Both the position numbers and the translations under genes were made by a program. A stretch of DNA of 64,000 nucleotides, from NCBI RefSeq assembly GCF_055900595.2, contig NZ_CM148325.1; one strand, given 5' to 3'. Every line of letters starts with the position of its first letter. Positions within the stretch are counted from its first letter, which is position 1. The notes under the pieces were generated by a model. It was not told the DNA's origin. It worked only from the letters and a program-made list of their open reading frames with translations, and made no database searches. Of the stretch, positions 55,147 through 62,396 are shown in pieces.

Positions 55147-55170
55147 TACCCTTTATACCATGTCCTTATT

Positions 55171-55196
55171 GACCCCGTAATTACGGGGTCATTTTT
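55171..55196. terminator. bidirectional terminator between yciE and the ompW remnant
   Basis: gaccccgtaa / ttacggggtc perfect hairpin followed by atttttg. Confidence 0.75.
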
Positions 55197-55204
55197 GTGC
55201 GGAA

Positions 55205-55321
55205 TTAAAAACGATATCCTGCTGAGAACATAAACACCCACGGATCAAGACGTACGCTATCGTGTTGCTGCGCACCACCCAGCTTATAATTTGCGGTGGT
55301 GTCAATATCCATGTACCAGAC
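55205..55321 (-). pseudogene. ompW: 3-prime fragment of ompW (last ~38 codons)
   Basis: Reverse-strand translation ...VWYMDIDTTANYKLGGAQQHDSVRLDPWVFMFSAGYRF-stop matches the OmpW C-terminus as I recall it; no upstream ompW sequence beyond about 55321. Confidence 0.8.
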
Positions 55322-55660
55322 TGGCAGGTTTTAAAAAATCAAATAAGATATTGTATCTGAAAGAAAAAACAGGATTTTGAGATGCTTTTTTATACCGTTT
55401 TTCAGCGTTTTTAACTGCCTGATTTTATTGAAATCTTTTTTAGTTTTGCAGAAAGGATTTTTTGATCGATTGCTTTAATTTTATACATTCCTGATAACGG
55501 AAATTTTTTACCCGTTGACAGTTTTTATCCTCCGGGGCTATATTTCCAACGCGTCAGCAAAATCTGGCGTCGGGATTGGAACCCCGGATGTTTACGGAGC
55601 GATATGAGACGCGCCCGCGTCTTTTTTCATATCGTTTGCACAGTCACATTCGCGATTTAT

Positions 55661-55737
55661 GGCGGGCTGTGTGGGGGAGCCGAAAGGCTCGCCGGTTTCC
55701 GTACCCGGTAGTTCCAACCCCGCACAGTTCGCCACCA
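55661..55737 (+). other. structured element 1 (tRNA/tmRNA-3-prime-like, ends CCACCA)
   Basis: 77 nt; 13-bp outer stem GGCGGGCTGTGTG / CGCACAGTTCGCC (with G-U pairs) enclosing a GAGCC-GAAA-GGCTC hairpin; shares a 26-nt core with element 2. Confidence 0.4.
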
Positions 55738-55791
55738 TGATGATTGGAACCTGAAGGTGGCGATAATTTTCAAATGTACGGAGTTATCGTT

Positions 55792-56352
55792 ATGCCCACT
55801 CAAATTTCTGTCGACACTCTTCCTGCAATCACCCACAACCAGGTCCCCGTTATTACAACTGAACTTCTGGCGCAGTTATACGGAACAAAAATCAAAAACA
55901 TTTCTGATAACTTTCTGAACAACACGACGCGATTCGTGGTAGGAAAGCATTACTTTAAAATTGAAAAAAACGAATTACGCGAGTTTAAGAACAGACCCGA
56001 AACAATCGGGTTAGTTGGTAAAAATGCCCGCTCCCTTATCCTCTGGACAGAACGTGGCGCAGCCCGCCATGCCAAAATGCTCGAAACCGATCAGGCATGG
56101 GAAGTGTTCGAAAAACTGGAAGACTGTTATTTCAGCCAAAAACAACCACCAGCAACACAAAACTCACCCACCCCAAATGATGGATGCGCATTACTGATCC
56201 ACTTTGATAAACACGGTCAGGTAGAGTTCACAGAAAAAGTCCCCGCCGATGCGATGGTATGCACTCTGGAACGGTTTAAATTTTATCTGGAGCAACACGG
56301 CTGGCTCGTTGCCCGTAAAGAACAACTGGTGGAAAGGCTGATGCAGCTTTAG
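55792..56352 (+). CDS. phage antirepressor-like protein with N-terminal ORF6N/KilA-N-type domain
   Basis: Start taken at the ATG with GGAG RBS; translation ...VPVITTELLAQLYGTKIKNISDNFLNNTTRFVVGKHYFKIEKNELREF... resembles ORF6N-family phage proteins. Confidence 0.6.
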   Translation: MPTQISVDTLPAITHNQVPVITTELLAQLYGTKIKNISDNFLNNTTRFVVGKHYFKIEKNELREFKNRPETIGLVGKNARSLILWTERGAARHAKMLETDQAWEVFEKLEDCYFSQKQPPATQNSPTPNDGCALLIHFDKHGQVEFTEKVPADAMVCTLERFKFYLEQHGWLVARKEQLVERLMQL

Positions 56353-56402
56353 CAGATATAACAAGTGTTTTTTCTCGTATGCACGCGCACATATGAATTA
56401 TT

Positions 56403-56730: not shown

Positions 56731-56979
56731 ATGCGTATTGAAATCTGTATCGCTAAAGAAAAATTCAGTAAAATGCCAAAAGGCTCTGTACCTGCTCTAC
56801 AACAGGAAATGTCTAGCCGTATCAGAAAACGATATGACGATGTGGAGGTTATAGTAAAATCCGCCAGTAATGACGGACTGACCATTTTAAGAGCCGTAGA
56901 TAAAGAAAACGCTCAGAAGTTCATACAGGAAACGCTGCAGGAAGTCTGGGAAACTGCTGATGACTGGTTTTTTCACTAA
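56731..56979 (+). CDS. DinI-family DNA-damage-inducible protein (prophage-borne)
   Basis: 82 aa; [16 protein letters not shown]...[14 protein letters not shown] resembles DinI (MRIEV...WESADDWF); GAGGG RBS. Confidence 0.75.
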
Positions 56980-57362: not shown

Positions 57363-57818
57363 TTATTCAACACCTGAATCCCCCGCCGCTTCTCTCCCCT
57401 TTATAAAACGCCCCTTCCGGAATCCAGACCGCTGCAGTGCACGACGAAGATGACCGTATACCGTCTTGTCATTCTGCCCCGTCTCTTCTGTAATCTCCGC
57501 AATACTTAAACCTCTGTAATACCGGTTCAGTACCGCTCTGCGCTCTTCCAGCGTCAACACACCTCCGGCCGCTCTCAGATTCATCATCGACTTATTCAGA
57601 ATACAGCAGGCCTCTCCGGTAAAAAGAATACGAACAATATCTGTATACTCATCATCACAGAATACAAAATAATATCTGAATGACCTGCCTGACTGCACCC
57701 TTCTTCTGTCTGATATGGCATCTTCTATATATCTGATTCGACTGCTTACGGTTCCAAATATCTCTCGCAGGGCTTTTTCAAAATAAATATCTCTCGTCGC
57801 CAGGATTATATCCAGCAT
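57363..57818 (-). CDS. putative HTH regulator with sigma-70 region-4/LuxR-like C-terminus
   Basis: 151 aa; C-terminal LTLEERRAVLNRYYRGLSIAEITEETGQNDKTVYGHLRRALQR fits the region-4 HTH pattern; N-terminal part unassigned. Confidence 0.4.
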   Translation of the reverse strand: MLDIILATRDIYFEKALREIFGTVSSRIRYIEDAISDRRRVQSGRSFRYYFVFCDDEYTDIVRILFTGEACCILNKSMMNLRAAGGVLTLEERRAVLNRYYRGLSIAEITEETGQNDKTVYGHLRRALQRSGFRKGRFIKGREAAGDSGVE

Positions 57819-57836
57819 CTCTGTACCTCATTATAT

Positions 57837-57856
57837 CCCGGGGGACTCCCCCCGGG
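57837..57856 (-). terminator. GC-rich hairpin between the adhesin gene and the downstream regulator gene
   Basis: cccgggggactccccccggg inverted repeat; no clear U-run, so it may be an attenuator or processing structure rather than a terminator. Confidence 0.35.
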
Positions 57857-57879
57857 ACAGATATCTAAATCCTGACCTG

Positions 57880-59520
57880 TCAGAACTCAAAATTCACACC
57901 AGCATTCCACGATGCGGATGACCCACCTGCAGCAACTGCAACTTTTCCTGCCACATTCTCTGTGAAACGGTAGCCCACGCCCACCGCAATGGCCTGCTCA
58001 TCACGGTAACCACCAACGGCTGCTGTCGCGTTAAATTTTCCAACACTGTATGGCTGGAAAAGACCGGCCAGTGCCGCGCTCTGGGCTGCACTCTCCCTTA
58101 ACTCCTTCCGGTTCTCTTTAATCTGCTCCTGCATATTATTCATTCTCTCTGTCGCCATCTTCTGCCAGGCTTCCGTCAAATCCAGACGATGACTGTTATT
58201 CCTTATCGCTGCTGTATTTGAGGCTATTGCTGCATCCGTCTGCGCCACCGCTGCCGATGTGACTGCAATAATATCCCTGCTGAGTTCATCACGTACTGCT
58301 GTAACCTGACTGTCAGTATGAGCACGGGCATCTCTGTATACACCGCCTATCTCACCACGCAGACTGTCTCCCTCTGCCTTCAGTTCATCACGTACTGCTG
58401 TGACCTGACTGTCAGTATGAGCACGGGCATCTCTGTATACACCACCTATCTCACCACGCAGACTGTCTCCCTCTGCCTTCAGTTCATCACGTACTGCTGT
58501 GACCTGACTGTCAGTATGAGCACGGGCATCTCTGTATACACCGCCTATCTCACCACGCAGACTGTCTCCCTCTGCCTTCAGTTCATCACGTACTGCTGTG
58601 ACCTGACTGTCAGTATGAGCACGGGCATCTCTGTATACACCACCTATCTCACCACGCAGACTGTCTCCCTCTGCCTTCAGTTCATCACGTACTGCTGTGA
58701 CCTGACTGTCAGTATGAGCACGGGCATCTCTGTATACACCGCCTATCTCACCACGCAGACTGTCTCCCTCTGCCTTCAGTTCATCACGTACTGCTGTGAC
58801 CTGACTGTCAGTATGAGCACGGGCATCTCTGTATACACCACCTATCTCACCACGCAGACTGTCTCCCTGTGATTTCACTTCAACCCCAAGGTTGCGGGTA
58901 CGATTATCCAGCTCCACGACGAATTCTTTAACAGGGACTGTCTGAGCATTTCCGTCAGCCCTTCCGTCAGCAGTGATTCGGCCTGATGAATCCAGAACAA
59001 AATTCTGGCCTTCAACTACATTTTTATACAATGATGACAATCCCGATGTTGTATTACTAATTTTAATAAAATCCTCAGCGGTACCACCAGCATTAACAGC
59101 GGCGATATAATCATCCTTGTTTTCTGGCTTGATTATTTTTTGTAGTGATTCTTTTGTATCAACAATGGACTTTATATCTTCTGCTTTTATATTTCTGATG
59201 TTTTCGGCTTTTAATGCATCTGAGTAGATGGGGTAAGTTAGCAAATCCTGAGCAACAATATGCCTAGCATTCTCAGGAGCTGCTAATATAGCACGCGTAA
59301 TAGAATCATTCGGGACAATACGCCCTGTATTAGCTCCAGTAATAGTATTAATAAGATTAACATCATTACCTTTTGATATTACTGCCGCACCATTATCATA
59401 CAGAGTAACCTCATATCCATCTACATTAAAACTCTCTTCTGCCATAACCCCCACAGAGTAACATAACAGCGCACCGGTAACCGCCATTGCCAATACATTC
59501 TTTGCCATTATAAATTTCAT
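57880..59520 (-). CDS. YadA-like trimeric autotransporter adhesin (Eib-like), prophage-encoded
   Basis: 546 aa; signal peptide; C-terminus [62 protein letters not shown] matches the YadA membrane anchor; coiled-coil stalk with six 33-aa repeats. Confidence 0.8.
58285..58875. repeat. six tandem copies of a 99-bp unit inside the adhesin gene
   Basis: Near-identical 99-bp units encoding [33 protein letters not shown]; successive copies alternate a synonymous ccgcc/ccacc difference, so the array is effectively 3 x 198 bp. Confidence 0.9.
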
Positions 59521-59955
59521 ATGGTATATCCTGTTAAGAAGATTAAACTGTAACCCCCCCTGAATAAGCAGGCGAGATTCTTTTCCAGGATACCTTTCAG
59601 AGTCACCACTGCATTGATTTTAACAATCAATACAGTTAACATGGAATTATAGGATAAATGCACCCCGATAAAACAATATGAGCGTTCTTGTCCCCATATG
59701 TCAGCAGAGCATTCAGATATAGCTGTCAGAATAACCGTTTCCTACATCAGTCATTCATCACAGACTCAATTGTGAATCAGTTCACCTTTTTTGCAATTCC
59801 TTTATTGATCGAAAGCAGTTAATCACAGAAATTAATTACCGGAGTGAAAGCATTTGCTATGTAAACATTCCCAGAAGACATCTTCATGTTGAATATTATT
59901 CCCTTATTGACTACACCCCTCTGACAGAATTTTCAGAGGGGTTTTTTTATCAGTT

Positions 59956-60531
59956 TCACCATCCAACCCTGTACGCCAGAATGGTTTCACTGTCACTCAG
60001 TTCTGCTATTGCCTTTTTCATCTCCCTTTGCCTTATATGTATTTCAAGGCCTTTCCTGAACATCGCTTTACCAGCAGCATCACTCAGGGATATCAGTTCA
60101 TCTGCCGTCATCGGTACATCATTATTCTCTGCGTCCGTCCAGAAAAATCCTTCCGGCAACACACCGCCTCTGGCCGCTGATGCCGACATTCCAAGACGTG
60201 TCATGGCTTCCTTTCCATAATCCCATTTCCGTCCTCTGTGCTCAAAAACATACCCTGACGCCTCCATCGCATCACGCCAGGCATTTATCTCCGCGTTTTT
60301 CATCCTGCGTGCTTCTTCCACAGCCATATCATCATTTGCCCGGTACTCACCTACCGGCCCTGCATCACCTCTTATGCAGGCTTCAAATATTTCACGACCG
60401 TAAGACTCAGGATCATCCGCACTTGCTGTAAATACACATTCTGTTTCCGCGTCTGAAAACTTCACTATACAGTTTATGGTCGTATGACCCCTGTCAGCCC
60501 ACACTGGTGACGTGATTTTATCGACCTTCAT
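59956..60531 (-). CDS. putative phage tail-fibre assembly chaperone
   Basis: 191-aa ORF immediately downstream of the tail-fibre gene (15-bp gap); pattern resembles DUF4376-type chaperones; assignment is mainly by position. Confidence 0.45.
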   Translation of the reverse strand: MKVDKITSPVWADRGHTTINCIVKFSDAETECVFTASADDPESYGREIFEACIRGDAGPVGEYRANDDMAVEEARRMKNAEINAWRDAMEASGYVFEHRGRKWDYGKEAMTRLGMSASAARGGVLPEGFFWTDAENNDVPMTADELISLSDAAGKAMFRKGLEIHIRQREMKKAIAELSDSETILAYRVGW

Positions 60532-60545
60532 TCATTTCTCCCCTG

Positions 60546-62396
60546 TCACCGTATTCTCTGAAACAGGCCCCAAATCGTCCCAATGATATTATTGACTGTC
60601 ATGTTAGTTGTGCATAACATCCATGTACCAAGCATATGATTGCCAAATAAAAAGCGGATATCTGTAAGTTTATCCGATGACGACGACACAATAACGGCCT
60701 GTCTGATACGATACCCGGGTATTTCACGGGTATTTGTTACCTCATGATTTCGTTCTATGATCCCCAGAACATAAGACCCCACGGAATAAACACTTCCGAC
60801 GCTCGCTGGCTGCCCCGGCTGTCCCTGCGGACCTGCCGGGCCGCGTGCACCTGTATCGCCCTTTAGTCCCTGAGGACCTGCCGGGCCGCGTTCACCTGTA
60901 TCCCCCTTTAGTCCCTGTGGACCTGCCGGACCGCGTTCACCTGTATCGCCCTTTGGTCCCTGTGGGCCACGCTCCCCCTGGGCTCCCAGCTCTTTCCATT
61001 CAGACCAGGGGCCATTACCGGTAAAATTACCAGTAACAGTTCTTACGAACTTTCGTGGTGGGTTCCAGGTTGTATATTCATGCTGGCAATATCCCCATGC
61101 ACCAACTCTTACCTGAAGATAACCCGCTCTCTGAATCGGATAATTATTTTCTCGTGTAGCCCCACTGTCTGATGGCTGATAATAATCACCCTGATCGGTC
61201 ACTCGTCCCAGTCGGTTCAGATCACCATTCAGCAGTTGTCCACGGGCTGACTCTCCTCTTGGTCCCTGAGGGCCTTCCGGACCACGTGCACCTGTTTCGC
61301 CCTTTGCTCCCTGTGGACCTGCCGGGCCGCGTTCACCTGTTTCACCTTTTGGTCCCTGTGGACCTGCCGGGCCGCGTTCACCTGTATCCCCCTTTAGTCC
61401 CTGTGGACCTGCCGGACCGCGTTCACCTGTTTCACCTTTTGGTCCCTGTGGTCCTGCCGGGCCGCGTTCACCTGTTTCACCCTTTGCTCCCTGTGGACCT
61501 TCCGGGCCACGTTCACCTGTATCGCCCTTTAGTCCCTGTGGACCTGCCGGACCGCGTTCACCTGTTTCACCTTTTGGTCCCTGTGGACCTCCCGGATCTC
61601 CTTTATCCCCCTTAGGGCCTTTTTCTCCTCGCTCACCCTTTTCTCCCTTCAGACCCTGAGGGCCTTCCGGACCACGTGCACCTGTTTCGCCCTTTGCTCC
61701 CTGTGGACCTGCCGGGCCGCGTTCACCTGTTTCACCTTTTGGTCCCTGTGGACCTGCCGGGCCGCGTGCACCTGTTTCACCCTTTGGTCCCTGAGGACCT
61801 GCCGGGCCGCGTTCACCTGTATCGCCCTTTAGTCCCTGTGGACCTGCCGGACCGCGTTCACCTGTTTCACCTTTTGGTCCCTGTGGTCCTGCCGGGCCAC
61901 GTGCTCCTGTTTCACCTTTTGGCCCCTGTGGCCCGGTAATGCCTCTTTCACCACGTGCGCCGGTATCCCCTTTCTCTCCTCGTGGTCCCCGGGCAGATGC
62001 AGCTCGTTTCCGGGCTTCCTCCGCCTCAGATGCCGCGGACTCTGCTCTGTGCAGTATGGACTGCACCACAGCCTCCAGCTCTGACAACGCCTTCGGATAA
62101 TAAGGAGCATCTTCCATCTCCATCAGAAATTTATTCAGTGTTCCCGGTGAAGAATCCTCCCTGACCACGATATCTCCCACATACGAAGGACGGTAACCTT
62201 CTGTATTGAGTGTCACCCTGTATATTCCTGGCTCCACATCCATACTGTAACTCCCCGTCTCTTCCGGCATGCCATAAGCCACTGTCGTGGCGATGACTGT
62301 CTCGCTGGTTCTCTTCGCTTTCAGCTCAATAATGCATCCCGGTACCGGTTTTCCGGTTCCGTCCCTCAGCACGCCTGAAATTTTTACAGCCGCCAT
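60546..62396 (-). CDS. phage side tail fibre with collagen-like G-X-Y repeats
   Basis: 616 aa; N-terminus [18 protein letters not shown]...IELKAKR resembles the lambda Stf N-terminal domain; two long G-X-Y blocks separated by an ~90-aa non-collagenous insert; globular C-terminal domain. Confidence 0.8.

Follow-up and report, generated by a model that had tools for sequence, protein, structure and literature searches.

We analysed a 64,000-nucleotide stretch of contig NZ_CM148325.1 (NCBI RefSeq assembly GCF_055900595.2), hereafter the window. On its minus strand, at positions 57880–59520, it carries an intact open reading frame (ORF) that encodes a protein of 546 amino acids (aa). Judged by its sequence features, the protein is a prophage-borne trimeric autotransporter adhesin, a hitherto uncharacterised relative of the Eib and YadA proteins of the ordinary kind. 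We put the probability at roughly 80% that we are dealing with an accessory ('moron') gene, located at that end of a lambdoid prophage in ompW which carries the tail fibre, and that it encodes a trimeric autotransporter adhesin with a variable-number stalk. Two observations on related genes define this locus further: the number of stalk repeat units is polymorphic, ranging from 0 to 7, and the gene is a mosaic of a prophage-type head and an island-type stalk and anchor.

The protein starts with a predicted Sec signal peptide (aa 1–27; 59440..59520, minus strand), which was read directly from the sequence and is followed by EES. Its basic N-region, which includes K2 and K7, precedes a hydrophobic core and a V-M-A cleavage-type site between VMA and EE. 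Homologues from the same head family have an equivalent leader (...GAMA before AE) and the same layout. The N-terminal head (aa 28–215; 58876..59439, minus strand) is made up of a beta-meander and helices, with an LDNRTR junction at its end. Six tandem stalk units of 99 bp or 33 aa each (aa 216–413; 58282..58875, minus strand) come next, delimited on the basis of Tandem Repeats Finder, the differences between units, the hydrophobic periodicity, and a YRD motif. The membrane-proximal stalk (aa 414–487; 58060..58281, minus strand), which was placed by ungapped alignment to EibA 269–333 and EibD 388–452, is without a saddle. A YadA-type beta-barrel anchor with the C-terminus ...NFEF completes the protein (aa 488–546 plus stop codon; 57880..58059, minus strand).

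The anchor was identified with both Pfam and the Protein Data Bank (PDB). It matched the Pfam family YadA_anchor (PF03895) over model positions 1–60 of 60 (aa 488–546, E=3.8e-16); no other Pfam family matched the protein convincingly. The best solved relative was the membrane anchor of YadA (PDB 2LME, E=2.1e-17). The YadA model of NCBIfam (NF033478) scored 74 bits against a cut-off of 750, the match being limited to the C-terminus (aa 427–545). Weak Pfam matches to Apolipoprotein were attributed to the 11-residue amphipathic periodicity of the stalk and not to homology. Neither Hep_Hag nor HIM nor any other autotransporter passenger family was found in the Pfam search, and a motif search did not find a neck. 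Of the features that characterise trimeric autotransporters, the anchor, the signal peptide, and the coiled-coil stalk are thus present, and none of the other catalogued passenger modules (such as YadA-like head repeats, neck, Trp-ring, or GIN) was found. An initial annotation, made from the DNA sequence alone, had proposed a signal peptide, a stalk in the form of a coiled coil, and an anchor much like that of YadA, and sequence reading, periodicity, and the Pfam and 2LME matches agree with it on all three. Trimer formation, surface display, and a function as an adhesin are predicted from these features.

According to Tandem Repeats Finder, the repeat array spans 58283–58882 with a period of 99, 6.1 copies, 98% matches, no indels, and a score of 1144, and is the strongest tandem array of the 64-kb window. 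In gene coordinates, the six units cover nucleotides 646–1239, that is, aa 216–413. At position 36, T and C alternate from unit to unit across the array (T,C,T,C,T,C; GGT or GGC, both encoding glycine), which gives an effective core period of 198 bp × 3, corresponding to three double units. Units 2–5 are identical save for this alternation. Unit 1 has three further substitutions, two of which change the protein (KSQ vs KAE), and unit 6 has two further synonymous ones. The six 99-bp units with an alternating synonymous change described in the initial annotation were recovered both by Tandem Repeats Finder and by unit-by-unit reading; identity apart from this change, however, is confined to units 2–5. 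Antisense to the array, a 184-aa ORF (58318–58872, plus strand) is perfectly repetitive; it represents a by-product of the stop-free frame, with no evidence for a gene.

A single hydrophobic periodicity of 3.67 residues (11/3) dominates aa 216–413, indicating that each 33-aa unit consists of three hendecads, and every unit contains one YRD (YxD) motif. For aa 414–487, the periodicity is about 3.5. Right-handed coiled coils of trimeric autotransporters are characterised by a prominent YxD motif and periodicities above 3.63 (daTAA, PMC2373917). Alignment of one unit with the right-handed coil of EibD (GGVYDD...YTDQKTSEVNEKVEA) by BLAST required a single gap of 11 residues. The unit thus resembles the 44-residue EibD segment minus one hendecad. 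With a helical rise of 0.15 nm per residue, one unit would add about 5 nm and the whole array about 30 nm to the stalk.

Public proteins with the same head have lengths of 381, 414, 447, 480, and 513 aa, equivalent to 1–5 units. Alongside these, a second series has an additional, optional stalk module of 66 aa; one of its alleles has no units at all. In complete genomes the number of units was 1–7, and the same range was found among twelve alleles read at the DNA level. Since one unit equals 33 codons, changes in copy number alter the length of the protein but not the reading frame, and the variation is one of length and not an on/off phase variation. Most carriers of the allele come from poultry. 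The initial annotation had considered a change in stalk length likely, and the range of units among the relatives bears this out.

The closest comparison was provided by Ch1 and GF4, both of which carry a prophage at the same ompW site with four units in the adhesin gene. Over 1080 bp comprising the upstream region and the head, their sequences are 100% identical to the window; on the downstream side, the identity is 99.9% over 2.2 kb. Position 36 reads T,C,T,C in GF4 and T,C,T,T in Ch1. From the GF4 pattern it follows that adding one double unit of 198 bp to the GF4 allele yields the allele of the window. The same T/C alternation occurs in a seven-unit island allele (L007), and other alleles show single-unit patterns. 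The alternation shows the gain or loss of 198-bp double units. In TUM1886 (L002, 6076–7617) and ECCNB12-2 (L003, 6415–7617), five units are followed by an in-frame hybrid joint to the 66-aa module, in which …GGVYRDA is joined to LKEAKSQAEHL…. We regard this joint as a direct trace of in-frame recombination between stalk modules. Recombination between repeats is a known route in the evolution of trimeric autotransporters (PMC3539135). In RefSeq, the coding sequence of the L002 copy begins only past the signal peptide and that of the L003 copy within the head, so that both copies may be damaged.

Of 5426 complete E. coli genomes, 218 matched the DNA encoding the repeats, the membrane-proximal stalk, and the anchor, and the head DNA was matched in just six of these 218. 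We inspected five island loci (L007–L011), from E. coli PKF11, MDR_56, and XDL and from the avian pathogenic E. coli (APEC) strains APEC 102026 and APEC E19035. In all five, stalk and anchor, at 96–99% DNA identity to those of the window, come after a canonical YadA-like head and neck (…GAPETRRIINVSDG…). The genes reside in an island of extraintestinal pathogenic E. coli (ExPEC) and APEC strains that is rich in insertion sequences (IS); genes for transketolase and for a phosphotransferase system (PTS) for ascorbate adjoin two of the five loci. The encoded YadA-like island protein (WP_000919999.1, WP_353939967.1) has the same 33-aa units (1–7 copies), the same membrane-proximal stalk, and the same anchor as the prophage protein, and its gene is followed in four of the five loci by the helix-turn-helix (HTH) gene that is also found here. 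It differs in its canonical YadA-like head repeats and neck (RRIINVSDG...) and in its location in an island, whereas the prophage protein has another head. A literature search for the ExPEC-island adhesin found no paper.

Two further features fit a mosaic structure. The GC content is 37% in the upstream region and 39% in the head, but rises abruptly to 52% for the stalk and anchor, as would fit a head swap onto a pre-existing stalk and anchor. Furthermore, right-handed stalks occur only after a neck according to the daTAA rules (PMC2373917). The island genes obey this rule and the prophage gene breaks it, which would be consistent with a recombination event close to the first unit that exchanged the head.

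The head itself appears to represent an E. coli-restricted family of about 200 protein clusters without a Pfam entry or a solved relative. No match to aa 28–215 was found in Pfam or NCBIfam. A search of the PDB sequences with aa 28–251, covering the head and the first unit, yielded nothing relevant up to an E-value of 10, and this includes the EibD 160–418 crystal construct. A relative of the head is the 'adhesin' of Escherichia phage GER2 (MG710528, AVD99023.1), which is 31% identical over aa 1–209 and has the junction ...VV.LDNRTR in common with the head. The GER2 adhesin family agrees with the 546-aa protein in head family, prophage position, and anchor type. In GER2-type proteins, however, nothing or only a saddle lies between the head and the membrane-proximal coiled coil, and none of those inspected contained the 33-aa array.

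An exhaustive search of 1.84 billion representative proteins with the head returned nine matches, namely six YadA-anchor proteins or fragments (five plus the cluster of the query itself) and three unrelated repeat proteins. A profile search of a protein collection clustered at 90% yielded 199 clusters of the head family, and those listed were all from E. coli or Shigella. The full-length clusters contain a YadA anchor and are mostly 350–415 aa in length; some members of the family have an EibA/D-type saddle and coiled coil. Homology between the head and the N-terminal domain of the Eibs was considered and rejected at the sequence level, as two profile–profile comparisons with hhalign gave a probability of 2%. 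AlphaFold2 was used for structure modelling. A first run with an alignment of six sequences reached a predicted local distance difference test (pLDDT) score of 57 and was discarded in favour of an alignment of 28 sequences. The resulting model was confident for residues 1–130 (pLDDT about 90) and showed a five-stranded beta-meander followed by helices.

The window contains the trp operon, yciGFE, and then an ompW remnant and the end of a lambdoid prophage, the last two having been recognised by comparison with Ch1 and GF4. The prophage is inserted in ompW, with the junction region at about 55150–56400; in Ch1 and GF4, only a 126-bp fragment of ompW is left, which adjoins yciE. A tRNA search found no tRNA at the prophage junction. 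The genes at the prophage end are arranged in the order ORF6N, DinI-like, 151-aa HTH gene, adhesin gene, 191-aa DUF4376 gene, and tail fibre with collagen-like repeats. In the GenBank records of P-EibA, P-EibC, P-EibD, and P-EibE, the order is an orf-401-like fibre (contained only in the longer P-EibA record), orf-191, eib, and orf-156. The 191-aa gene (59956..60531, minus strand), which resembles tail-fibre assembly genes, encodes a product with 56–59% identity to ORF-191A/D; the assignment agrees with PHROG tail-fibre families (E=5e-62) and with the RefSeq annotation of its relatives.

Two stem-loops occupy the same positions as those that flank eib in the P-Eib records. One, palindromic and rich in GC (TCCCGGGGG/CCCCCGGGA), separates the adhesin gene from the HTH gene (57836..57857, no strand assigned) and is not followed by a T-run on the gene strand. 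The other is a hairpin with a 10-bp stem at 59915–59942, just past the stop codon of the 191-aa gene, with a T-run on the plus, that is, the opposite strand. It is located in the AT-rich region upstream of the adhesin gene (59521..59955, minus strand; 435 bp, 37% GC). In a terminator scan the counts were at background level, and this hairpin alone was notable. From the shared gene order, the identity of the 191-aa gene product, and the positions of the stem-loops we conclude that the adhesin gene occupies the eib slot. The prophage origin assumed in the initial annotation is thus supported by the gene order in common with P-EibA/C/D/E.

Occupying this slot does not make the protein an Eib. Comparison with the Eibs and YadA, proposed in the initial annotation, identified the anchor as homologous to both and the last coiled coil as homologous to that of the Eibs, but the rest of the passenger is unlike theirs. 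Similarity to EibA and EibE is confined to the last 124 residues (aa 423–546), with 56% identity and no gaps in the alignment to EibA. The alignment to EibC and EibD reaches aa 354 solely by way of a gapped match to the repeats. Identity to EibD falls with distance from the membrane, from 44 of 59 residues in the barrel (75%) to 17 of 34 in the last coiled coil (50%) and 8 of 31 in the stretch aligned to EibD 388–418 (26%). According to a 2025 study, the Eib proteins have the barrel, a left-handed coiled coil, and a saddle in common, and the head of EibA consists of the N-terminal domain only (PMC12511318). A motif search that detected the saddle in EibA, EibC, EibD, and EibE did not find it in the 546-aa protein. 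Among the features by which an Eib is recognised, the prophage slot is therefore present, the common C-terminus is incomplete for want of a saddle, and the Eib-type N-terminal domain is absent. On this sequence evidence, membership of the Eib family is not established.

Comparison with single members leads to the same picture. EibA (P-EibA of E. coli ECOR-9; AAF63234.1) is encoded in the same slot, preceded by genes for a tail fibre and for a 191-aa assembly-like protein. This autotransporter is shaped like a lollipop, with the N-terminal domain as its head and without a YadA-like beta-roll (PMC12511318). Unlike the 546-aa protein, EibA possesses a saddle and the Eib-type N-terminal domain, and it does not contain the tandem array of 33-aa units. 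EibD (PDB 2XQH/2XZR; AAF63040.1) is alike in its barrel and last coiled coil, and its right-handed coil contains the motifs GGVYxD and YTD. It differs in its YadA-like beta-roll head, neck, and saddle, and its right-handed part is a single segment of 44 residues versus the six 33-residue copies here. With YadA of Yersinia, the protein has the homologous anchor and the YxD stalk type described for the class in common, but the head and neck of YadA are absent. The Eib- or YadA-like passenger assumed in the initial annotation is thus not supported: the protein has no Hep_Hag/YadA head, neck, or saddle, and the head has no profile similarity to the N-terminal domain of the Eibs. Given the lack of an Eib-like head, neck, and saddle, immunoglobulin binding and serum resistance are conjecture for this protein; for EibA, immunoglobulin binding is established.

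Taken as a trimeric autotransporter, the protein would be carried across the inner membrane by its signal peptide. Three C-terminal YadA-type anchors would then combine to one 12-stranded barrel in the outer membrane, and the passenger would thread out to yield a three-chain fibre composed of a short left-handed coiled coil, the six 33-residue units, and the globular head. Each unit would contribute three 11-residue repeats with the YxD motif, a signature of straight to slightly right-handed stalks. Unequal recombination or replication slippage between the near-identical 99-bp units would add or remove whole units in frame. We infer that such gain and loss would tune the length of the stalk, and hence the reach of the head, without switching the gene off.

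Several points weigh against this interpretation. Trimer formation and surface display are deduced solely from family membership, and 'adhesin' is likewise a family-level label, the head being without a structural relative or known ligand. Structure comparison found no relative of the head outside its own family. The AlphaFold2 model is poor at the joint between head and stalk, with pLDDT values below 50 from residue 176 onwards, and as the stalk follows no neck, the structure of this joint is tentative. Promoter-like matches in the upstream region were no more frequent than in shuffled sequence. Finally, the count of six units is unique to the window and could be an assembly error.

We regard it as unlikely that the protein is a functional Eib, the stalk of which binds the Fc part of IgG and/or IgA non-immunologically and renders the lysogen serum-resistant. 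The prophage slot and neighbours are those of eibA, eibC, eibD, and eibE, the last 124 residues are 56% identical to EibA and EibE, and the repeat unit is similar to the right-handed EibD coil. Some relatives in the databases are even named 'immunoglobulin-binding protein', but these names are automatic annotation transfers. Two stalk regions of EibD bind IgA and IgG (review, PMC7247746), and other members of the head family carry the EibA/D-type saddle and coiled coil. In the 546-aa protein, however, the saddle common to all Eibs (PMC12511318) is missing, and its head has no profile similarity to the Eib N-terminal domain. The few identities in the stretch aligned to EibD 388–418 argue in the same direction, as this region presumably contains the IgG-Fc site of EibD.

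About equally unlikely, in our estimation, is that the count of six is an assembly artefact and the true allele has another number of units, for instance the four found in the near-identical prophages. A collection of 15 billion proteins does not contain the exact 546-aa sequence, and in the two closest complete genomes there are four units, the context being otherwise identical. Public partial proteins with the same head (P0009, P0023, P0024, P0025) end inside the array at contig ends, and clusters of partial proteins ending there have 39, 29, and 26 members. Short-read assemblies thus routinely break at this place, and the assembly risk pointed out in the initial annotation is real. On the other hand, six units fall within the natural range of 1–7, and the reading frame is intact. 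A genuine 198-bp duplication of the four-unit allele would produce just such an orderly T,C,T,C,T,C pattern, in which the first and last units are distinct, and the same pattern is present in the seven-unit allele of a complete genome (L007). The 'very recent expansion' suggested in the initial annotation is consistent with the flank-identical four-unit prophages, but in the window alone it is inseparable from a miscount during assembly.

That the gene codes for a component of the virion, a tail fibre or tail-associated adhesin, instead of a bacterial outer-membrane protein, we consider extremely improbable. It lies directly after the tail-fibre and fibre-assembly genes, some of the matching PHROG families are labelled 'tail', and proteins of Salmonella and Shigella phages match aa 352–521 at about 30% identity. 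These points are outweighed by the cleavable signal peptide and the complete barrel anchor with an aromatic C-terminus typical of outer-membrane proteins. Moreover, the hairpin and the 435-bp gap set the gene apart from the late operon, and this type of stalk and anchor is also found in islands that are not phages. A more far-reaching version of the autotransporter interpretation would take the 33-residue unit for a shortened EibD right-handed coil, a segment which we take to bind IgA in EibD. The array would then constitute a multivalent ligand-binding rod, its valency, or its reach past O-antigen and capsule, being tuned by the number of units; the rod would be exchanged between heads of the prophage and the island type, with the HTH gene as a dedicated regulator. 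This proposal is speculative and, to our mind, quite improbable.

The phage proteins just mentioned belong to phage genomes of similar size. They comprise 'tail fibers', a 'tail protein', and an 'agglutinating adhesin' from Salmonella phage records of about 71–72 kb, and a 'hypothetical protein' of a Shigella phage (KC139520/NC_021782, OR050522, OQ359892, OM858838). The matches have 30–38% identity and cover the coiled coil and the first part of the anchor, which suggests that coiled-coil modules may be common to phage fibres and YadA-type adhesins.

Among the neighbouring genes, the 151-aa HTH protein (57363..57818, minus strand) resembles region 4 of sigma-70 (Pfam Sigma70_r4_2, E=3.7e-7; all NCBIfam matches were below the cut-offs). 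Its gene is located downstream of the adhesin gene in 10 of 11 related loci, in prophages and islands alike. An IS4-like element separates the two genes in L008, and IS elements take the place of the HTH gene in L010. The protein has 21% identity to ORF-156 of the eib loci (BLAST, E about 4e-4) with a similar N-terminus (ILATR..Y.E..L), and it may be a dedicated regulator of the adhesin module. A DinI-like gene (56731..56979, plus strand; NCBIfam DinI, E=5e-19; PHROG 189) lies near the prophage end, in the same order as in the relatives, and a gene with an ORF6N domain is found at this end at 55744–56352; the latter is frameshifted in Ch1 and GF4.

On the other side of the adhesin gene, the side tail fibre of 616 aa (60546..62396, minus strand; PHROG tail fibre, E=2e-124) contains collagen-like repeats. 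In relatives, it is listed by RefSeq as 'prophage tail fiber N-terminal domain-containing protein'. Its gene includes two arrays of 45-bp units encoding collagen-like G-X-Y repeats (60821–60965 with 3.2 copies and 61259–61931 with 15.3 copies). The length of the gene varies between 1374 and 1851 bp among related prophages, and it is thus a second length-variable repeat gene adjoining the adhesin.

The protein belongs to a kind already known, the trimeric autotransporters, and modulation by repeat number likewise has a precedent in the class. Judging from the title of a report by Sheets and St Geme from 2011, cited in PMC3417366, the adhesive activity of Cha of the Haemophilus cryptic genospecies is reportedly modulated by the number of its tandem peptide repeats. 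Cha is unrelated to the E. coli protein in sequence and host. In practical terms, the array is a break point for short-read assemblies, so that allele calls need long reads. The locus shows an exchange of modules between a prophage adhesin family and an adhesin of an ExPEC island. Prophage-borne surface adhesins alter the host adherence and the immune resistance of E. coli lysogens, and the natural series of 0–7 in-frame units on near-identical genes would be usable for determining the effects of stalk length on adhesion, autoaggregation, and serum resistance.

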